Positions 5,570-27,558 of a stretch of DNA of 64,000 nucleotides are shown in pieces. A program made the translations under genes and the position numbers. Below the pieces are notes generated by a model, which saw nothing but the letters and a program-made list of their open reading frames with translations, did not search any database and was not told the DNA's origin. The stretch comes from an uncultured Kiritimatiellota bacterium (GTDB taxonomy: Bacteria; Verrucomicrobiota; Kiritimatiellia; RFP12; DVOR01). The stretch's first letter is position 1. Each line of letters begins with the position of its first letter. The stretch is taken from NCBI GenBank assembly GCA_944391085.1, contig CALXSE010000008.1, positions 2,437 to 66,436 of the forward strand, read 5' to 3'.

Positions 5570-6453
5570 CCCTGAACTCCCTTGACCGCGTCCGCGTCGC
5601 CGACTGCCCCGCCGTACACGCGCGCCTCTCCCTGGCCAACGTCACCGACACCGCGCGTACCCTCGAGCGCAACCACCTCTGCGGCCCCATCGCCGGCCTC
5701 GTCCAGGCCGAGCTCGCCGGCTGCGCCGCCCTCATGGGGCAGGATCGCCTCGCCGCGCCCGGGCAAAAGCTCGCCCTGCGCGTCACCCTCCCCGATGGCG
5801 CGCTCGGCGGCGCGCACCTGGAATGCGCCCGCTCCGCGCACGGCCTGGACATCCGCGGCTACACCCGCCAGAAGGTGCTCCCCGGCATCGACGACGGCGA
5901 CGCGCCAGACGAGACGCTCTTCGACCGCGCCATGGGCCGCAGCGCCCGTTGCGCCGTCGTCGCCGCGGAGGGCGACTCGCACTTCGACCTCTCCTTCGAC
6001 GACCGCCTCACCGTCACCGACATCCTCGAGGACTACTTCGTCTCCGCCCTCGGCCGCAACGCCCTGGCGCAGGTCTCCGCCGCCAGCAGGGTCGGCTACG
6101 TCGAATGCGCCCACGCCCTCCTCTGCGAGTTCCTCCCGGAGGCCGACGACGGGGCCTACGAGCGCGCCCGCCAGGCCTTCGACGACGGCGCCGTGCAGGA
6201 CGCGCTCGACGGCGGCGCCGACCTGGCCGCCATGGCCCGCCTGCTGGGCCTGGGCGAACCCGTGCCCGTGGCCGACGTGCCCGTGCGCTTCGCGTGCGGC
6301 TGTTCCGGCCAAAAGGTGCTCGCCATGCTCCGCGCCCTGCCCCGCGCCGACCTGGCCGCCATGATTGCCGAGAATCGGCCCTCGGACATCTACTGCCACA
6401 TGTGCGGCAAGTGTTACACCATCACCCCGGAACAGCTCAAGGCCCTGCTGTGA
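5566..6453 (+). CDS. hslO: Hsp33 family redox-regulated chaperone
   Basis: C-terminal zinc centre FACGCS...YCHMCGKCY (CxC...CxxC) is typical of Hsp33. ATGA overlap with the upstream gene. Confidence 0.85.
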   Translation: MTLNSLDRVRVADCPAVHARLSLANVTDTARTLERNHLCGPIAGLVQAELAGCAALMGQDRLAAPGQKLALRVTLPDGALGGAHLECARSAHGLDIRGYTRQKVLPGIDDGDAPDETLFDRAMGRSARCAVVAAEGDSHFDLSFDDRLTVTDILEDYFVSALGRNALAQVSAASRVGYVECAHALLCEFLPEADDGAYERARQAFDDGAVQDALDGGADLAAMARLLGLGEPVPVADVPVRFACGCSGQKVLAMLRALPRADLAAMIAENRPSDIYCHMCGKCYTITPEQLKALL

Positions 6454-18614: not shown

Positions 18615-20216
18615 ATGGACATCGACACCGCCGAGCTGCTGGAAGGCCAGATCGAGAGCAAAGCCCTCACCCTCAAGGAACTCTTCGCCGAAGACCCCGG
18701 CCGCGCCGGGAAGATGACCGTCTCCGCCGCCGGCTGGACGCTCGACTATTCCAAGAACCTCGTGGACGAGCCCACCCTCAAGCTCCTCCTCCGGCTCGCC
18801 GAGAAGGCCGACCTCAAGGCCGAAATCGAGAAGATGTTCACCGGCGAGCACATCAACAAGACCGAGGACCGCGCCGTCCTCCACACCGCCCTGCGCTCCT
18901 CCAAGACCGCCGGACTGGTGGTCGACGGGCAGGACGTCTACGCCGACGTCCACGCCGTCCTCGACCGCATGGGCGACTTCGCCGCCCGCATCCGCGCCGG
19001 CAAGTGGCGCGGCGCCACCGGCAAGACCATCCGGTACGTGGTGAACATCGGCATCGGCGGCTCAGACCTCGGCCCCGCCATGGCCTGCCAGGCCCTCCAG
19101 CCCTTCTCCAAGCGCTCCATCAAGTGCTTCCACGTCTCCAACATCGACGCCACGCACATGGCCGAGACCCTCCGCCAGGTCAAGGCCGACCAAACCCTCT
19201 TCATCGTCGCCTCCAAGACCTTCACCACCCAGGAGACGATGACCAACGCCCACACCGCCCGCGCCTGGCTCGTCGAGCGCCTGGGTGAGGCCGCCGTCCC
19301 CCGCCACTTCGTCGCCGTCAGCACCAACGCCGCCAAAGTCAGGGAGTTCGGCATCGACGAAGCCAACATGTTCGGCTTCTGGGATTGGGTCGGCGGCCGC
19401 TACTCCCTCCCCTCCGCCATCGGCCTTTCGCTCATGATCGCCATCGGGCCCGCCAACTACAAGCGGATGCTCGCCGGCTACGAGGCCATGGACAAGCACT
19501 TCCGCACCGCGCCCTTCCGCCGCAACCTCCCCGTTCTCCTCGCCCTCATCGGCATCCTCTACTCCAACGGCTACGGCGCAGACTCCTACGCCGTCCTCCC
19601 CTACGACCAATACCTCGCCCGCCTCCCCGCCTACCTCCAGCAGCTCGACATGGAGAGCAACGGCAAGAGCGTCGACCGCGACGGGAACCCCGTCGACTAC
19701 ATGACCGGCCCCATCGTCTGGGGCGAGCCCGGCACCAACGGCCAGCACGCCTTCTACCAGCTCATCCATCAGGGTACCCGCCTCATCCCCGCCGACTTCA
19801 TCGGTTTCTGCCGCAGCCACAACCCGATCGGCGACCACCACGACAAGCTGATGGCCAACTTCTTCGCCCAGACCGAGGCGCTCGCCTTCGGCAAGACCGC
19901 CGAGCAATGCCGCGCCGAGGGCGTCCCCGAGCGCCTCATCCCCTACAAGACCTTCGAGGGCAACCACCCCACCAACACCCTTCTCGCCGACGAGCTCACC
20001 CCCCGCACCTTCGGCGCCCTCATCGCCCTCTACGAGCACAAGGTCTTCACCCAGGGCGTCATCTGGAACATCTACTCCTTCGACCAATGGGGCGTCGAGC
20101 TCGGCAAAGTCCTCGCCGGCAAGATCCTCAAGGAACTCGAAGACCCCGCCCTCCCCCTCGCCCACGATTCCTCCACCAACGCCCTCATCGCCCGTTACCG
20201 CGCCGCCAAGGCCTGA
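18615..20216 (+). CDS. pgi: glucose-6-phosphate isomerase
   Basis: 533 aa: [46 protein letters not shown]. Confidence 0.95.
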
Positions 20217-20261
20217 TGCACCCAACGGGAAAGCGCCCACGCGCTTCCCAAAAAACAAGAA

Positions 20262-20288
20262 AGCCCCGGCCAACCGGCCGGGGCTTTT
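20262..20288 (+). terminator. intrinsic terminator after pgi
   Basis: 10-bp stem AGCCCCGGCC/GGCCGGGGCT with a 4-nt loop, followed by TTTT. Confidence 0.8.
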
Positions 20289-20412
20289 GCTATCATAAGG
20301 GCACGCCGCGGGTGAGCCGTGGCATTCTTGCGCTTTGCGCAGACAAGTTGCCTGACTGAAACTTGGAACCTTTCACACCTGGGCAACGTGTTTGGCGGAG
20401 CGTGTCATATTC

Positions 20413-20485
20413 GGCACGCTTCCTTTTCATGTATCCAGGTAAGGCAGTTCCAAGGCCGCAGTCAGGCACGTGAAAGGAAGCGTGC
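20413..20485. repeat. imperfect inverted repeat (about 15 bp arms, 41-nt spacer) abutting the methyltransferase start
   Basis: GGCACGCTTCCTTTTCA (20413-20429) pairs with TGAAAGGAAGCGTGC (20471-20485), followed by TTTTT and ATG 20491. An outer 9-bp IR is GCCTGACTG (20350-20358) / CAGTCAGGC (20459-20467). Confidence 0.7.
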
Positions 20486-20490
20486 TTTTT

Positions 20491-21453
20491 ATGGCGAGCA
20501 ACAAGGGACTGAACCAGGCCAACAAGCAAAAGAAAGACGAGTTTTACACGCAACTCTCGGACATCGAGCACGAGTTGCGCCATTATCGCGCACACTTCCG
20601 CGGCAAAACGGTGCTGTGCAACTGCGACGACCCGCGCGTCTCCAACTTCTTCCGCTACTTCGCCTTCAACTTCGAGGCGCTGGGCCTCCGCCGGCTGATC
20701 ACCACCTGCTACAAGAACCAGGATCCCGACCTCTTCAGCATGAACACCTGCGAGCGGGCCATTTGGCTGGAATACCTGGGCGACACGAACGGCAACCGCG
20801 TGCCCGACCCCGATGAAATCGGCATCCGCCCGCTCCAAGGCGACGGCGACTTCCGCTCGCCGGAATGCGTGGCGCTGCTCAAGCAGGCCGACATCGTCGT
20901 CACCAACCCGCCCTTCTCCCTCTTCCGCGAGTACCTCGCGCAATTGATCGAGTACGGCAAGAAGTTCATTATCATCGCCCATCAAAACGCCATTCACTAC
21001 AAAGAAGTCTTTCCGCTTTTCATGCGAAACGAGATCTGGCTGGGTTATGGGTTCCCTGGGAACGCCAGTTTCTTCATCTCGAAATACGAGGACGTTGCCA
21101 CGGCAAGTTCGCACCGCGAGGGCATGATTCGCGTCTCGGGCGTAACGTGGTTCACCAATCTGGATATACCCAAGCGGCACGAAGAACTCATCCTCTATAA
21201 GACCTACACGCCCGATGATTACCCGGAGTATGACAACTACCGCGCCATCAACGTCAATAAAACAGCGGAGATCCCAATGGACTACGGCGGAATTATGGGT
21301 GTACCGATCACATTCATGGATAAATATAACCCCGAACAATTCGAGCTGATTGGAACAAGCACAACAGAGATGGCACGCGGGGCGCCCTATCTCAACGGCA
21401 AACGGATTTATGAGCGTATTCTCATCCGCAGGAGGAAGCAAGATGAAAATTGA
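20491..21453 (+). CDS. N6-adenine DNA methyltransferase, EcoRI-methylase family
   Basis: KKDEFYTQLSDIEHELRHYRAHFRGKTVLCNCDDPRVSNFFRYF... and catalytic TNPPF. The region is AT-richer than its flanks. No SD is visible; an alternative GTG start lies at 20470. Confidence 0.85.
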   Translation: MASNKGLNQANKQKKDEFYTQLSDIEHELRHYRAHFRGKTVLCNCDDPRVSNFFRYFAFNFEALGLRRLITTCYKNQDPDLFSMNTCERAIWLEYLGDTNGNRVPDPDEIGIRPLQGDGDFRSPECVALLKQADIVVTNPPFSLFREYLAQLIEYGKKFIIIAHQNAIHYKEVFPLFMRNEIWLGYGFPGNASFFISKYEDVATASSHREGMIRVSGVTWFTNLDIPKRHEELILYKTYTPDDYPEYDNYRAINVNKTAEIPMDYGGIMGVPITFMDKYNPEQFELIGTSTTEMARGAPYLNGKRIYERILIRRRKQDEN

Positions 21454-22525
21454 GTTACGGCATGTCACGGTTCGCGAACTGACAGAAGGGTATGTGGACG
21501 ATGGCGACGGCGGCGTGCGCGGTTACGGCGGGCGGCTCGACATCCGCCCGCCCTATCAGCGCGAGTTCATCTACAAAGACGCCCAGCGCGACGCCGTGAT
21601 CGACACGGTGACGGCGGGTTATCCGCTGAACGTGATGTACTGGGCCGCCCGCGGGGACGGCACCTTCGAGGTCATCGACGGCCAGCAGCGCACCATCAGC
21701 ATCTGCCAGTACGTCGCCGGGGACTTCTCCCACAACCTCCGCTTCTTCCACAACCTCACGGCGGACGAGCAGGAACTTATCCTCGACTACCCGCTGATGG
21801 TCTACGTCTGCACCGGCACGGAGAGCGAAAAGCTGGCCTGGTTCCGCGTCATCAACATCGCCGGCGAAAGGCTCTACGAGCAGGAACTGATGAACGCCGT
21901 CTACTGCGGCCCCTTCGTCACCGACGCCAAACGCCACTTCAGCCGGAACAATTGCCCCGCCTATCGGCTGGCGGAACGCTACGTCTCAGGCAAGGTGGTG
22001 CGGCAGGATTTCCTGGCCACGGCGCTGGCATGGATTTCACGGGGCGACGCGGAAGTGTACATGGCCGCCCATCAGCACGACCCCAACGCCACGGCGCTGT
22101 GGCTCCATTTCCAACAGGTCATCGGTTGGGTCAAGGCCACCTTCCCCCACTGGCGCAAAGAGATGCGCGGCGTCGACTGGGGCACGCTCTTCCGGCGCTT
22201 CGGCCAAGAGACGCTCGACGTGGCCGCGCTGGGCGAACGCGTCGACGCCCTCATGGCCGACAGCGACGTCCAATGCAAGAAAGGCATCTACGCCTACGTG
22301 TTGGACGGGGACGAGCACCACCTTGAGCTGCGCGCCTTCGACGACAACACCAGGCGCACCGCCTACGAGCGCCAGCAAGGCCTCTGCCCAAATTGTGGGA
22401 AACACTTCGAGCTCGGCGAGATGCACGCCGACCACATCCTCCCATGGTCAAAAGGCGGCCACACCGTCGAAGCGAATTGCCAGCTGCTCTGCCGCACCTG
22501 CAACCTCCGCAAAGGCGCCAGATGA
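21443..22525 (+). CDS. DUF262 (ParB/GmrSD-N-like) domain fused to a C-terminal HNH endonuclease
   Basis: IRPPYQREF...VIDGQQRT is the DUF262 hallmark. C-terminus CPNCG...HADHILPWSKGGH...N...CRTCNLRKG is HNH with two CxxC pairs. Strong SD GGAGGAAG. Overlaps the methylase 3' end by 11 nt. Confidence 0.85.
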   Translation: MKIELRHVTVRELTEGYVDDGDGGVRGYGGRLDIRPPYQREFIYKDAQRDAVIDTVTAGYPLNVMYWAARGDGTFEVIDGQQRTISICQYVAGDFSHNLRFFHNLTADEQELILDYPLMVYVCTGTESEKLAWFRVINIAGERLYEQELMNAVYCGPFVTDAKRHFSRNNCPAYRLAERYVSGKVVRQDFLATALAWISRGDAEVYMAAHQHDPNATALWLHFQQVIGWVKATFPHWRKEMRGVDWGTLFRRFGQETLDVAALGERVDALMADSDVQCKKGIYAYVLDGDEHHLELRAFDDNTRRTAYERQQGLCPNCGKHFELGEMHADHILPWSKGGHTVEANCQLLCRTCNLRKGAR

Positions 22526-22620
22526 ACGCCACGCCCCTCTCCTCAGGAGAGCTGCGCCACGCGCGCGATTATGGTACACTCAAGGCGTTCCGCGCGGTCA
22601 CGGTCAGGGAGAGGCAAGTC

Positions 22621-23211
22621 ATGCACAGTCGGTTGGTCAAAGCGCTGGTCTTTCTGGGGGCGATACTGGCGCTGAGCGCGCCGGCGCGGGCATGGCTGGA
22701 CACCGGGGAAGAACTGTCCGAGTGGGAATGGATGGAGCTGGAAACCGCACGGCGGGCCTGGCAAGGCGCGCAGAGATGGGACGACGGCCAACGGACACGG
22801 CTCTACGACGAGGAGATCGAGGACACCCTGCGCCACGGTCGGCAAGGCGACATCTTCTGGAAAAGCGAATTCAACCGCCTGTTGGGAGAACGTCGCCGCG
22901 CGCAGAGAAACGCAATGGCCATCGAGGCGGCACGCTGGGAATGGGAAAGGGAGCGCGCCCGGGAGCGGAACGCGCACACACGGCGGCTTGATCGCACCAT
23001 CGACGACACGTTGAACAACGCGGAATGGGACGAGTCGGGCGCCTGGCGGATGGACTTCGACCGATTGCTGCGCACCCGCCGCACGGCACGCGAGCGGCTC
23101 GGCAAGCCACCGAGCCCCTCCCAGCCTCTTCCCCCGCCGCGCCCCCACCTGTTGCACCCTCAGCCGCGCACGCCGCGCCACTGGGGTCGTGCCCCGTTCA
23201 CCCCCCTGTAA
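22621..23211 (+). CDS. hypothetical secreted or membrane-anchored protein with two W/E/R-rich repeats
   Basis: Signal-like MHSRLVKALVFLGAILALSAPARA. Two units of about 60 aa (WEW...R..D..I.DTL...W..(E/D)F(N/D)RLL..RR.A). High GC3 in this frame. An alternative start at ATG 22522 sits in an ATGA overlap with the HNH gene. Confidence 0.6.
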   Translation: MHSRLVKALVFLGAILALSAPARAWLDTGEELSEWEWMELETARRAWQGAQRWDDGQRTRLYDEEIEDTLRHGRQGDIFWKSEFNRLLGERRRAQRNAMAIEAARWEWERERARERNAHTRRLDRTIDDTLNNAEWDESGAWRMDFDRLLRTRRTARERLGKPPSPSQPLPPPRPHLLHPQPRTPRHWGRAPFTPL

Positions 23212-23229
23212 AGCGAAGGACAAAGAACC

Positions 23230-23796
23230 ATGGCGGAAATCATCCCATTCAACGAGGCTGGAATCGAACGGGCGGCAGGATTGTTGACGCGGGGCGGGGT
23301 GGCAATCGTGCCGACGGAGACGGTCTACGGCGTGGCATGCCACCCGGCCTTCCCGGAGGCGTTAGAGCGGATCCGCGCGATGAAGCACCGGGACAGGGAC
23401 AAACCTTTCCAGCTCCTGGCGGCGGACACCGCGACGGTATGGGCGGACGGCGCCCTGCATTCACCGGAAGCGGAACGGGCGGCGGCCCATTGGCCTGGGG
23501 CGCTCACCCTGGTGTTGCCGACGGGCAAGGGGACAACGGAAGGGTACCGCGTGCCGGACCTGCCCCTCCTGCGGCGCCTCATCGCCCTTTGCGGCGGGTT
23601 GCTGCGGTGCACGAGCGTAAACCTGAGCGGGGAGCCTCCGGCGAAGGATGTGCGGGAGGCCATGGCGGCGCTCGGGGGCGCGGTCGACCTGGTGCTTGAC
23701 GGCGGGCCGGCGCTGCTGGGCGTGGCCTCGACGGTGGCGGCGCTTTCGCCGGAAGGAAGACTGGCGGTGTTGCGCCAGGGTTCCGTCCACCTTTGA
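23230..23796 (+). CDS. tsaC: L-threonylcarbamoyladenylate synthase (YrdC/TsaC family)
   Basis: GGVAIVPTETVYGVACHP...KHRDRDKPFQLL...TSVNLSGEPP. Confidence 0.82.
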   Translation: MAEIIPFNEAGIERAAGLLTRGGVAIVPTETVYGVACHPAFPEALERIRAMKHRDRDKPFQLLAADTATVWADGALHSPEAERAAAHWPGALTLVLPTGKGTTEGYRVPDLPLLRRLIALCGGLLRCTSVNLSGEPPAKDVREAMAALGGAVDLVLDGGPALLGVASTVAALSPEGRLAVLRQGSVHL

Positions 23797-23821
23797 GGCC
23801 GCAAGCGTTCGCAACGCCGAC

Positions 23822-23857
23822 AAAAAAGGAAGCGCCCGTGCGGGCGCTTCCTTTTTT
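23822..23857. terminator. bidirectional intrinsic terminator between tsaC and the convergent 1228-aa gene
   Basis: AAAAAAGGAAGCGCCCG..CGGGCGCTTCCTTTTTT, a perfect 17-nt palindrome flanked by A and T runs. Confidence 0.85.
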
Positions 23858-23871
23858 GTCGGCCGTGGCCG

Positions 23872-26800
23872 TTACTCCTCGACGACGACGCGGAAGCCGA
23901 CGTTGTAAGGATGCTGCCATTGCGGATAACCCCAGCGGTTGGCGGAGGAGGCGCGAATCTGACGCTGATACCAGGAACCGCCGCGGATGACCTTGAGCTC
24001 GGGATTGGCGCCGTCAAAGCCGGGCCCGCCCTCATAGGAGACGAAGGGCGAGGTGGTCCATTCGGCGACGTTGCCGTGCATGTCGTAGAGCCCAAAGGCG
24101 TTGGGGAGGTAGGAGCCGACCTTGGCAAGGTGGAGGACGCCGTCGTTGAAGCGGGGATCCTTCTTCTCGTAGTCCATCCACTGATCGGGGTTGCGGATGG
24201 GCTGCGGGTCGACGCCGCGGACGGCGAGCTTCTTCATGGTGACGTCAGCGAGGTTGGCGTGCTTGCCGAAGTCGGCGTTGAAGTCGCCGTAGTTCATGGG
24301 CGTGTCGGTGCCGGCGCGGCAGGCGTATTCCCACTCGGTCTCGGTGGGGAGACGCACCTTCTTGCCGGTCTTCTTGGAGAGCCAGTCGCAGAAGGCCTGG
24401 GCCTGGTCGAAGGAGACGCGGATGGCGGGGAAGTCCGGGTCGTTCACGAAGTAGCCGCGGCGGACCTGATCCTTGTAGTGCATGTCGTAGACGCCGTTCT
24501 CGAAGGTGGGGTCGAACTCGCGCATCATACCCATGGTGACCTCGGTGGTGCCCATGTAGAAGGGCTTGGCGACCTCGGCGGGATGGGCGGGGGCCTCGGC
24601 GTTGGTCTCGTCGTCCGAGCCCATGACGAACTTGCCGGCGGGAATCTTGACGAGGGTGATGGCCTTGCCGCCGCCGACGTCGAGGGTGAGGGTCTGGCGC
24701 TGGCCCTGCTTGGCGGCGCCGTCGAAGGGCCACCCCTCCACGGCGGGCTTCTGGGCGGGCTTGGCGACGGTCGCGCCGGTGGGGGCGGCGAACTTCACGG
24801 CCCCGGGCTTGTAGGGGTTGATGATGCGCTCGGGGTCGAAGTCGAGGTTGGTGGTCTCGCGCTCGTAGCGGCGGCGCTGGTCGATCATGCGCTGGCGGGC
24901 GCCAAACTCAGTCCACGTGCCATAGTACGGGACGTTGAGGTCAATCCAGGTGATGATGCGATCCCATTCCTCGGGCGTGAGGACGACGCCGTGGTGCCCC
25001 TTCTTGAGGATCTGGTAAAGGTCGGAGGTGGTGGCGTGGAACTCGAGCGGGTTCAGCACGTGGTAGTCACCCTCGGGGCCGTTGCGGCGGACGTAGGGGT
25101 GGAGGGCGAGATAGGACTCGGAGAACTTGCCCCAGCCCAATTTCGGGTTGTACTCGAAGTTGGGGATGACCTCGCCGATGGCGTTCTTGGCGGTGGCCTT
25201 GCCGTTGTGGCAGCCGACGCACTTGGCGTCGAGGACGGGCTGGAGCTCGCGCTCAAAGGCCCAGCCGCGGGGCGGGCCGTACCAGTTGGCAATCTGCTGC
25301 GGGGGCTTGCGGGCGGCGGCGGTCACCTGGCCAGCGGGGGCGGCGGCGTTCTGGTTCTCGTGGCAGCCGATGCAACTGATGGTCTCGCCGGGCTGGCCGA
25401 CAAGCCAAGAGCGCATGAGCTGAAGGGCGCGGCCTTCGCTGTCAAGGGGCTGGACGCTGAGGGGCGTCTGCGCGGGGAAGACGAACATGGTGGAGCCATC
25501 TTCCTCGACGTCGACGGTGCCATGGAGGACACGGGGATCCCACGGGCCCTCCATACCGATGGCATAGTGGCCGCCGGCGTAGCGGGGGGCGTACTCGTAG
25601 TGGAAGACGCGGAGCTTTTTGACGGTGCCGTGGGGGACGTCCTTCAGGGTGTCCTGGCCGCGGTAGACGTTGGTCATGTAGACGTTGCAGGTCTTGGCGC
25701 CGGGAACGATGCGGTCAGGCTGGACGGGGGGGCGCTTGGTGGCCTTGAGGGGGATAGGCTCGTAAAGGTTGGTGTTGGGCATCTCCCAAAGGGTGAGGCA
25801 ATTGTCGAAGATGTCGATGAGGACGATCTTGAAGTCCTTGGAGCCGTCCTCCTGCTTGGCGACGAGGACGAGTTCGTCGTTCAGCGGGCGGGGGTGGATG
25901 AAGTAGGGCGAGATGTTGTCGACGAGGCGATCCAGCGTGATGTTCTCGATGGGCTTGCCGGCGTGGCCGAACTTGTGGACGGCGCCCTGGGTCTCGATGC
26001 GGCCCTTGGAGACGTCGAACATGACGAGCTCGCCTTTGCGGGCGACGCCATGATGGCCGGAGACGATGCCGACGAACTTGGTGGAGCTGCCGGGGATGTG
26101 CTGCTGGCCGAAGATGGCGTTGGGCCAGTAGGAGTTGGAGCCGTAGAACTCCTGCTGGTCGGTGCCGTCCTGGTTCATCGTCATCATGACGCGGGAGAAG
26201 TAGTGGGCGGAGTCGGTGTACTCCCAGCGCAGGAAGACGAGGCGGCCGTTGGGATAGACCTCGGGGTTCCAGTTGCAGTCCTGGTCGAAGGTCAGGCGGC
26301 GCATCCCGGTGCGCTCTTTGTTGATGAGCACGAGGTTGGAGACGATGTCGCCGCCGCTGACGCAGGGCACGCCCTGGAAGCCGACGGAGGCGGTGGTGAC
26401 GATGCGCCCGTCAGGCAGGTAGCAGGCGTCGTAGATGTCCACTTCCTTGTCGTCGTTCTTGTAGGCGCTGCGCCAGTTCTTGCCGTCGACGTCGATTTCG
26501 TAGAGTCCCCACGGGGTGCCCTTTTCCTCCTCACCGGAAGAGAGAAGCAGGGTCTTGGCGTCCCAGTCCAGGCAGAGGTCGCCCATGTAGACGGAGGATT
26601 CGCGCAGGACGGTGGGCTGGCGGTTGGGAGCCTTGTCCTGGTCGAGGGGGCCGCGGAGGAGCTTGCCCTTATAGGGCCCGCGGAGGTTGCCCTCGTTGTT
26701 ACCGAGCCAGCCGGTGTTGCCGGCGTAGTTGGCGAAGAGGCCCTGGGCCGCGCCGCGCTCGCGGGAGAGGAAGATGATCTCGTCGAAATCCACCGCGGGG

Positions 26801-27558
26801 TGCTGCAGGAGGATGGCCTTCTGAAGCTTGCGATAGTCGGCATAAAGGGAGCCGAAATCCTTCTCGCCGGCCTCGATGCGCTTCTGGAGGGCATCGATCC
26901 CGGCGGCGATTTCGGCGGCGTTGGGATAGTTTTCGGGATACTTCCCGGAATAGCGCTTCAGGCCGTCGCGCAGGGCGTTGAGGTTGATGGCCTTGGCAAG
27001 GGCGGCCAGGCGGGCGCGCTCCTGCAACTGCGGGATGGTCTCAAGCGTCTGGCCGGTGCGGGCGCCCTGGCCGGCCTTGGGCACGAAGATGTTCTGGCGC
27101 TCGGCGCGGGCGCGGTCGGCCTCCCACACAATCTTGCGCCCGGCGTCGGCGACGGTGACGCGGAAGCCGTTGAGGCGGCCGCCGAGGCCCTCGGCGCGGT
27201 TCCAGACCGTGATGCGCTCGATCTGCCCCAGGGGGACGTCCTTGCCCAGGTCAAGCTCCCACACGGGGAAGGGGGTGTTCTCCTCGGAGTGGGTGATGGT
27301 GCCGCTGTCCCAATTGCCGGCGGTGTTGCCGTCGATGGCGCGCCGGGCCTCGCCGTTGTTGGCGGTGGAGCTTTGGATGGCGGTGCCCTCGCGGGCGATG
27401 TTCTTGCCGTCCTTGGTGATGACCTCGACCTCGGCCAGCGAAAGCGTGGCGCGATCCTTCGGCAGGTCGACGACGACATAACGGGCGTCCGCGGCGTAGA
27501 CGCCTTGCGCCGCGAGCGCGGCCGCCAACGCAGCCAGGACAAATCGAGGACTCTTCAT
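23872..27558 (-). CDS. large secreted multidomain protein: F-type lectin/discoidin-like N-domain, HzsA-middle-like region with two CxxCH motifs, C-terminal FGE-sulfatase (SUMF1-like) domain
   Basis: Signal MKSPRFVLAALAAALAAQGVYA. AIDGNTAGNWDSGTITHSEE..PVWELDLG...VWNR..GLGGRLNGF is F5/8-C or fucolectin-like. Heme motifs CIGCH and CVGCH. C-terminus RVSFDQAQAFCDWL...RLPTETEWEYACRAG...YDMHGNVAEW...RGGSW. Confidence 0.8.
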   Translation of the reverse strand: MKSPRFVLAALAAALAAQGVYAADARYVVVDLPKDRATLSLAEVEVITKDGKNIAREGTAIQSSTANNGEARRAIDGNTAGNWDSGTITHSEENTPFPVWELDLGKDVPLGQIERITVWNRAEGLGGRLNGFRVTVADAGRKIVWEADRARAERQNIFVPKAGQGARTGQTLETIPQLQERARLAALAKAINLNALRDGLKRYSGKYPENYPNAAEIAAGIDALQKRIEAGEKDFGSLYADYRKLQKAILLQHPAVDFDEIIFLSRERGAAQGLFANYAGNTGWLGNNEGNLRGPYKGKLLRGPLDQDKAPNRQPTVLRESSVYMGDLCLDWDAKTLLLSSGEEEKGTPWGLYEIDVDGKNWRSAYKNDDKEVDIYDACYLPDGRIVTTASVGFQGVPCVSGGDIVSNLVLINKERTGMRRLTFDQDCNWNPEVYPNGRLVFLRWEYTDSAHYFSRVMMTMNQDGTDQQEFYGSNSYWPNAIFGQQHIPGSSTKFVGIVSGHHGVARKGELVMFDVSKGRIETQGAVHKFGHAGKPIENITLDRLVDNISPYFIHPRPLNDELVLVAKQEDGSKDFKIVLIDIFDNCLTLWEMPNTNLYEPIPLKATKRPPVQPDRIVPGAKTCNVYMTNVYRGQDTLKDVPHGTVKKLRVFHYEYAPRYAGGHYAIGMEGPWDPRVLHGTVDVEEDGSTMFVFPAQTPLSVQPLDSEGRALQLMRSWLVGQPGETISCIGCHENQNAAAPAGQVTAAARKPPQQIANWYGPPRGWAFERELQPVLDAKCVGCHNGKATAKNAIGEVIPNFEYNPKLGWGKFSESYLALHPYVRRNGPEGDYHVLNPLEFHATTSDLYQILKKGHHGVVLTPEEWDRIITWIDLNVPYYGTWTEFGARQRMIDQRRRYERETTNLDFDPERIINPYKPGAVKFAAPTGATVAKPAQKPAVEGWPFDGAAKQGQRQTLTLDVGGGKAITLVKIPAGKFVMGSDDETNAEAPAHPAEVAKPFYMGTTEVTMGMMREFDPTFENGVYDMHYKDQVRRGYFVNDPDFPAIRVSFDQAQAFCDWLSKKTGKKVRLPTETEWEYACRAGTDTPMNYGDFNADFGKHANLADVTMKKLAVRGVDPQPIRNPDQWMDYEKKDPRFNDGVLHLAKVGSYLPNAFGLYDMHGNVAEWTTSPFVSYEGGPGFDGANPELKVIRGGSWYQRQIRASSANRWGYPQWQHPYNVGFRVVVEE

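Follow-up and report, generated by a model that had tools for sequence, protein, structure and literature searches.

Introduction

BanLI is a restriction-modification (R-M) system of Bifidobacterium animalis subsp. lactis (O'Connell Motherway et al. 2014, PMC3990576). Its methylase, M.BanLI (41.7 kDa), was aligned with M.EcoRI by the authors of that study, and the cloned enzyme modifies a single strand of its site, RTC(6mA)GG (PMC3990576). R.BanLI (43.5 kDa) is the product of the adjacent gene, and the cloned pair of genes cut the plating of P1vir about 10-fold in E. coli (PMC3990576). Transformation went up 1.8-fold after pre-methylation by M.BanLI, and the authors thought that the system was incomplete (PMC3990576). 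In a 2026 paper, the gene of the REBASE Type II nuclease BanLI carries the annotation 'DUF262 domain-containing protein' (PMC13091528). Here we analyze a locus of related layout in a stretch of 64,000 nucleotides (referred to below as the window) from an uncultured Kiritimatiellota bacterium (contig CALXSE010000008.1 of GenBank assembly GCA_944391085.1, positions 2,437 to 66,436), in which a gene for an EcoRI-family N6-adenine DNA methyltransferase is followed by a gene for a nuclease that combines a DUF262 domain with an HNH domain. We consider it very likely that these two genes form a horizontally acquired Type II-like R-M cassette of the probable BanLI kind, because both proteins match Type II profiles, the two genes are almost invariably paired, the family is very large, the residues of the nucleotide pocket and of the HNH site are invariant, the predicted nuclease fold combines a ParB/Noc/BrxU-like part with an HNH part, bare cassettes of the same type are found elsewhere, the locus is an insertion with lowered GC content both overall and at third codon positions (GC3), the ratios of nonsynonymous to synonymous substitution rates (dN/dS) are low, and BanLI provides a precedent.

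Other described systems share individual traits with this cassette. The defence nucleases GmrSD, BrxU, and SspE, like the window nuclease, possess an N-terminal DUF262 domain with a DGQQR nucleoside triphosphate (NTP) pocket and a C-terminal His-Me finger nuclease, and SspE also resembles it in working beside a DNA-modification system of the host. In contrast, these three proteins carry DUF1524 where the window nuclease has a zinc-ribbon HNH domain of family PF01844, and the window nuclease is shorter by about 200 residues or more. Its near-obligate pairing with an adenine methylase leads us to expect an enzyme that would be blocked, and not triggered, by modification. The reviews consulted on DUF262 proteins in defence cover GmrSD, BrxU, SspE, Menshen, Dazbog, and PD-T4-2 and leave unmentioned the methylase-linked DUF262-HNH enzymes, whose family is much larger. 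The EcoRI system has a methyltransferase of the same Pfam family as the window methylase (PF13651, matched by the latter with 439 bits). R.EcoRI is a PD-(D/E)XK enzyme, whereas the nuclease that is paired with the window methylase is a DUF262-HNH protein; the possibility that the latter is an EcoRI isoschizomer was ruled out on account of this difference in fold. Type II enzymes of the HNH kind (the KpnI, Hpy99I, NlaIII/IceA1, SphI, and Eco31I groups) have the His-Me/HNH module and the linkage to a methylase in common with the window nuclease, but none of these groups has been described with a ParB/Srx-like NTP-binding domain, ParB being confined in their classification to the DUF1524/GmrSD group.

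An EcoRI-family methylase gene overlaps a gene for a DUF262-HNH nuclease

A first-pass annotation, made from the sequence of the window without database searches, had proposed both genes and their signatures, and in this respect it was borne out by the open reading frames (ORFs), their motifs, and Pfam profile searches (Table 1). The translation of the methylase gene displays the motifs DEFYT, CNCDDP, and TNPPF, the last of which is catalytic motif IV. Residues 7-293 of the protein match the Pfam family EcoRI_methylase (PF13651; E 1.8e-131), and the MTase_II profile PDLC03297 of PADLOC is matched over its full length (E 7.7e-117). A sequence search of the PDB returned no solved structure for this protein. 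The nuclease gene overlaps the methylase gene by 11 nt, and its ATG codon is preceded at a distance of 6 nt by a strong ribosome-binding site (AGGAGGA). The encoded protein has a predicted mass of 41.2 kDa, and its residues 1-358 align with positions 1-370 of the 372 positions of the PADLOC REase_II profile PDLC03418 (E 1.1e-134). Two traits of Type II systems are hence present at this locus: the methyltransferase and the endonuclease are specified by separate, adjacent genes that recur together, and both proteins match PADLOC Type II profiles over their full length.

A search of the nuclease for DUF1524 (PF07510) gave no match at E ≤ 0.01; the HNH families PF01844 and PF14279 were found instead. 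To describe the conservation of this protein, we used an alignment (A1) of 31 homologues that come from both of the nuclease subfamilies introduced below and share 41-74% identity. Invariant in the DUF262 domain are Q39, R40, E76, and the string D79-G80-Q81-Q82-R83, which correspond to the nucleotide pocket as it is found in GmrSD, BrxU, and SspE; invariant in the HNH domain are C315, C318, D330, H331, N345, C350, and N354. A confident AlphaFold2 model of the nuclease (predicted local distance difference test, 87.9; predicted template modelling score, 0.78) was compared with solved structures by Foldseek. Its N-terminal part matched CTP- or CDP-bound ParB, Noc, and BrxU, and its C-terminal part matched the HNH domains of Gme-HNH, McrA, Cap5, and Cas9. 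None of the Foldseek matches covered the full protein, and the sequence search of the PDB matched the HNH module only.

Table 1. Coordinates of the features at the pgi-tsaC locus (positions refer to the window; aa, amino acids).
Feature	Position	Strand	Description
G+C-rich hairpin	20260..20287	.	AAAGCCCCGGCC-AACC-GGCCGGGGCTTT; 12 pairs, 9 of them G-C; located after pgi; without counterpart in the relative L001
Perfect 13-nt inverted repeat in the methylase leader	20414..20485	+	Arms 20414-20426 and 20473-20485: GCACGCTTCCTTT ... AAAGGAAGCGTGC; 46-nt spacer
N6-adenine DNA methyltransferase, EcoRI family, 320 aa	20491..21453	+	PF13651; PADLOC MTase_II PDLC03297
Restriction endonuclease, 360 aa	21443..22525	+	DUF262/ParB-Srx-like NTP-binding N-terminus, helical middle part, C-terminal zinc-ribbon HNH
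DUF262 (GmrSD_N) domain, residues 34-154	21542..21904	+	PF03235, 61.8 bits (cut-off 33.2)
HNH domain, residues 315-360	22385..22522	+	PF01844, 53.9 bits
Third ORF, secreted protein, 196 aa	22621..23211	+	Signal peptide MHSRLVKALVFLGAILALSAPARA, two internal repeats of about 55 aa, proline-rich tail

The gene pair belongs to a large and widely distributed family

We assembled 123 related loci from metagenomes and viral contigs, 105 of which have enough upstream sequence for the partner gene to be assessed. In 104 of these 105 loci, the nuclease gene has a same-strand partner that encodes an EcoRI-family methylase, and nearly always this partner is located directly upstream. The nuclease has at least 8000 homologues. 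Each of the 120 best matches is about 360 aa long, contains the same three Pfam domains, and is 63-74% identical to the window protein, save for a conspecific protein with 99% identity; the named entries among them are Bacteroidales. A second subfamily, also with at least 8000 homologues, comprises mainly actinobacterial proteins of 388 aa (43.3-43.9 kDa) that are 41-44% identical to the window nuclease.

The two nearest homologues from outside the species (74 and 71% identity) are encoded in bare methylase-nuclease pairs, one of them situated between aspS and hrpA-like genes and the other between ABC-F and Amuc_1102-like genes; such bare pairs between other housekeeping genes are what one usually sees with small Type II cassettes. 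The pair is also present on small plasmids from members of the Bacillota, Bacteroidota, Pseudomonadota, and Actinomycetota, with hosts that include Aeromonas, Macrococcoides, Chryseobacterium, Sulfitobacter, Variovorax, Gordonia, Ligilactobacillus, and others; RefSeq labels the plasmid-encoded proteins 'adenine-specific methyltransferase EcoRI family protein' and 'DUF262 domain-containing protein'. Furthermore, a homologue of the nuclease, truncated in some cases, is encoded on 43 viral or prophage contigs of IMG/VR (L163-L205), several of which exceed 100 kb in length. Since the methylase gene is found on the same strand in the viral loci that have room for it, phages carry the cassette too.

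The combination of an adenine methylase with a DUF262-HNH nuclease had initially been viewed as a non-canonical module of a type not yet described. This assessment has to be abandoned in light of the full-length PADLOC Type II profiles for both proteins, the huge size of the family, the near-invariant pairing of the genes, and the BanLI precedent. The cassette is an unexceptional representative of a Type II-like R-M family that is very common and already catalogued. Comparison with a conspecific contig yielded dN/dS values of 0.09 (methylase gene) and 0.22 (nuclease gene), which shows that both cassette genes are under purifying selection.

The cassette resides in an insertion between pgi and tsaC

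To find the closest relative of the window, genomes were scanned with the Pgi protein, using one genome per species. The relative that emerged (L001) has ribE, pgi, and tsaC in the same order as the window, with protein identities of 64% for RibE, 86% for Pgi, and 65% for TsaC. However, pgi and tsaC are only about 25 nt apart in L001 (pgi ends at 5927 and tsaC starts at 5954), and neither the methylase nor the nuclease nor the product of the third ORF has a match in it. Since pgi and tsaC are so tightly spaced in L001 and all three genes are missing there, the whole stretch from the pgi stop codon to the tsaC start codon (20217-23229, + strand) is an insertion when compared with the closest genome available. 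Two metagenome contigs (L081 and L082) represent the same species as the window (98-99% protein identity) and have an identical arrangement. The suggested horizontal acquisition into a housekeeping neighbourhood is thus upheld, both by the pgi-tsaC synteny with L001, which lacks the insert, and by the nearest homologue pairs, which are bare cassettes at other sites.

No direct repeats or att-like sites were found flanking the insertion, and no tRNA genes were found in the region from 10 to 35 kb. In agreement with the first-pass annotation, there is no integrase-like ORF between the thiD-like, ribE, and pgi genes and tsaC. The region 20100-23900 contained no sigma-70-like promoter match. L001 (CAVDHG010000041.1) is deposited as 'Agathobacter rectalis', and the next-best matches to Pgi are from Kiritimatiellia and Lentisphaerae metagenome-assembled genomes. 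This entry looks like a case of bin contamination or mislabelling, and L006 ('Clostridiales bacterium') and L009 ('Barnesiella intestinihominis') appear to be similar cases.

The hairpin previously proposed to follow pgi at 20262-20288 is real, with boundaries shifted slightly to those given in Table 1. With an A-run on one side and a T-run on the other, it resembles a terminator in either direction, and it separates pgi from the cassette. Since it is absent from L001, with its pgi-tsaC spacing of about 25 nt, the insertion appears to have introduced a terminator, either carried along or newly formed, by which pgi and tsaC are uncoupled.

With respect to base composition, the GC content dips to 0.52-0.61 over positions 20200-21800, compared to 0.65-0.73 in the flanks. 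It amounts to 0.566 in the leader (20217-20490), 0.551 in the methylase gene, 0.635 in the nuclease gene, and 0.672-0.679 in the third ORF; the corresponding values are 0.665 for pgi, 0.727 for ribE, 0.697 for tsaC, and 0.697 for the entire window. GC3 is 0.763 in the methylase gene, 0.853 in the nuclease gene, and 0.80 in the third ORF, versus 0.946 in pgi and 0.915 in a large gene at 23872-27558. The insert is thus indeed AT-richer than its surroundings, as had been proposed, but the deviation resides mostly in the leader and in the methylase gene, in which both GC and GC3 are low. The overall GC content of the third ORF is host-like.

The two cassette genes also differ noticeably from each other, in GC and GC3 as given above and in synonymous divergence (dS) between conspecific contigs, with 0.071 in the methylase gene versus 0.017 in the nuclease gene. 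This gap could stem from separate histories of the two genes or from differing constraints.

Comparison with BanLI

BanLI is like the window cassette in having the methylase gene before the nuclease gene, a methylase of the M.EcoRI kind, a nuclease annotated as a DUF262 protein, and a GC content below that of its host. The window cassette, for its part, fits a BanLI-like layout, with an EcoRI-family methylase gene directly upstream of a gene for a DUF262 nuclease of about 41-44 kDa. The two differ in that BanLI adjoins an integrase gene and the window cassette does not. On the basis of its annotation, size, gene order, and partner methylase, BanLI is a probable studied member of the DUF262-HNH/EcoRI-methylase family. 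The mass of the actinobacterial 388-aa proteins matches that of R.BanLI, and BanLI probably falls into this subfamily; in view of the distance between this subfamily and the window nuclease, the RTCAGG site need not apply here. The published M.BanLI primer had no matches in the viral contigs, and no Bifidobacterium protein was present among the best 120 matches of a search seeded with an actinobacterial plasmid homologue.

We also inspected the window for avoidance of palindromes by comparing the counts of 4- and 6-nt palindromes in its 64 kb with Markov-expected counts. Only the generic signals CTAG, GATC, and GTAC were obtained; GAATTC (3 observed versus 3.9 expected), AATT, CATG, and GACGTC were not depleted.

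A number of points weigh against the assignment of the locus to a BanLI-like Type II group. The inclusion of BanLI in the family is based on the four traits named above and not on an alignment. Restriction by BanLI is weak (10-fold), and strong defence has been demonstrated for no member. The REBASE enzyme that stands behind profile PDLC03418 could not be named, as the literature and the annotations of plasmids and phages gave generic labels only. Palindrome avoidance provided no clue to the recognition site, an approach that is uninformative if the site is asymmetric. Finally, the literature searched contained no experiment on the NTP dependence of any DUF262-HNH enzyme.

An inverted repeat covers the ribosome-binding site of the methylase gene

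The leader of the methylase gene contains a perfect inverted repeat (Table 1). Its 3' arm includes the AAGGAAG ribosome-binding site and stops 5 nt short of the ATG codon. Folding of the RNA corresponding to positions 20390-20500 gave -46.3 kcal/mol (z -4.46). Among 101 related loci, 19 have a perfect inverted repeat of 10 nt or more at a distance of up to 80 nt from the methylase start, compared to 1.3% of control segments. About 17 of these 19 loci share the palindrome GTGAnTGATAGT-N9-14-ACTATCAnTCAC, which ends at the methylase ATG or within about 4 nt of it (e.g., L088, L092, L095, L097, L099, L104, L107, L109, L112, L121, L126, L128, L139, and L162) and is often preceded by a terminator-like hairpin. 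The repeat in the window differs from this palindrome in sequence and occupies the same position. The window repeat is a candidate for a translational hairpin or an operator that may set the expression of methylase and nuclease, and the shared palindrome of the related loci resembles an operator such as a cassette without a controller protein might use.

Alternative readings of the locus and the third ORF

The joining of DUF262 to a His-Me nuclease is the architecture of GmrSD, BrxU, and SspE, BrxU is among the fold matches of the window nuclease, and PADLOC searches gave weak matches to the Type IV profile mREase_IV and to NsnA. One could hence view the nuclease as a modification-dependent, GmrSD-like Type IV enzyme that attacks modified phage DNA, with a methylase that is either unrelated to it or sets a non-protecting mark. 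We regard this as highly improbable, since the match to mREase_IV reaches merely E 0.006, as opposed to E 1.1e-134 for the full-length match to the Type II REase profile, and since the methylase gene stands beside the nuclease gene, often overlapping it, with the single exception among the 105 assessable loci. The nuclease domain is moreover an HNH domain of family PF01844 instead of DUF1524, the protein has 360 aa versus the approximately 580 residues of the BrxU chain in 7p9k, and BanLI behaves as a methylation-protected system. BanLI is a weakly restricting system that its own authors thought incomplete, and chromosomal R-M systems often decay; the window cassette might accordingly be pictured as an inactive relic in which an orphan methylase stands next to a disabled nuclease. 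The intact state of both ORFs, which are of full length in comparison with the profiles, the retention of all catalytic and NTP-pocket residues, and the dN/dS values determined against the conspecific contig make such a decayed state very unlikely.

A further alternative concerns the third ORF, which had been put forward as a gene for an envelope protein coupled to the module. In such a three-gene system, the ORF (22522/22621-23211) would specify a translationally coupled envelope component that works together with the methylase and the nuclease. An ATGA overlap does exist at 22522, where the stop codon of the nuclease gene is joined to an in-frame upstream ATG of the third ORF; the ORF is located inside the insertion relative to L001, and it is kept in the conspecific contigs L081 and L082. 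We nevertheless judge a three-gene system to be extremely improbable. A better start codon, the ATG at 22621, is present 99 nt downstream of the ATGA, is preceded by its own ribosome-binding site (GGGAGAGG), and opens directly into the signal peptide MHSRLVKALVFLGAILALSAPARA; translation of the third ORF thus probably starts here and not at 22522, leaving the 33 upstream codons untranslated. Searches of Pfam, PADLOC, and NCBIfam gave no match for this protein, which has only six relatives among 1.84 billion representative proteins. The three homologues that were retrieved (P0242, P0243, and P0245; 177-191 aa) all start at the signal peptide, and the closest homologue, for which the genomic context was looked up, adjoins an acetyltransferase gene and a PEP-CTERM gene and not an R-M system. 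No homologue of the third ORF is present in any of the 123 related R-M loci or beside the closest homologues of the nuclease, and its overall GC content is host-like, in contrast to that of the methylase gene. The absence from the 123 loci and the unrelated contexts of the homologues ruled out the third ORF as a component of the system, so that of the proposed coupling only the ATGA overlap itself stands. By these comparisons, the third ORF is a native-type secreted neighbour inside the insertion and not part of the R-M system. Its product shows the repeat pattern WEW..E..AR...LD..I.DTL...W...F.RLL..RR that is typical of the family, and between conspecifics it diverges faster than its neighbours (95% versus 98-99% protein identity). 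The family is small and apparently confined to this gut lineage; its members are proteins of about 190 aa, each with a signal peptide, the two repeats of about 55 aa, and a tail rich in proline.

Proposed function of the cassette and its wider meaning

For the two-gene, Type II-like cassette, we envisage that the methylase would mark the host copies of a specific DNA site, which in the BanLI counterpart is asymmetric and methylated on one strand. The translationally coupled nuclease would then cut unmethylated foreign DNA through its C-terminal HNH (His-Me finger) site. Recognition of the DNA sequence presumably falls to its helical middle region (about residues 155-300), and its ParB/Srx-like DUF262 domain would bind, and perhaps hydrolyse, a nucleotide in order to gate or organise cleavage, as in GmrSD, BrxU, and SspE. 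The inverted repeat in the methylase leader, acting as a hairpin or as an operator, would probably limit the expression of both genes. The content of genes and domains, the conserved motifs, the pairing of the genes, the insertion, and purifying selection are direct results of the analysis. That methylation protects the host DNA we infer from BanLI and from this pairing, and we likewise infer a regulatory role of the leader hairpin. NTP gating of the nuclease is plausible in view of the invariant residues of the DGQQR/QR pocket; these residues argue for a possible involvement of a nucleotide, unlike in the classical, cofactor-free definition of Type II enzymes.

One can take this idea further. 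DUF262-HNH enzymes might be nucleotide-gated in such a way that an NTP switch lets two molecules communicate along the DNA, or dimerise on it, before the HNH domain fires, a proposal that we put forward tentatively and rate as rather unlikely. ParB uses CTP to become a sliding clamp, and Type III enzymes employ ATP to solve the problem that one-strand methylation poses for the protection of the host. If true, nucleotide gating would explain how the host survives after replication when a single one-strand methylase acts on an asymmetric site, as in BanLI, and a family of more than 8000 members that is now filed under Type II would need a mechanistic class of its own.

The window itself adds little beyond a further copy of an R-M cassette that is mobile and very common, and standard defence annotators can be expected to call it RM type II, because PADLOC Type II profiles match both proteins over their full length. 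No member of the methylase-linked DUF262-HNH family appears to have been purified in the literature searched. The wider interest of the locus lies in this family, namely in the nucleotide need of DUF262-HNH enzymes and, if BanLI is typical, in the way in which a one-strand methylase protects its host. The recurrent repeat over the methylase start offers a lead on how the expression of methylase and nuclease may be timed in cassettes that lack a controller.

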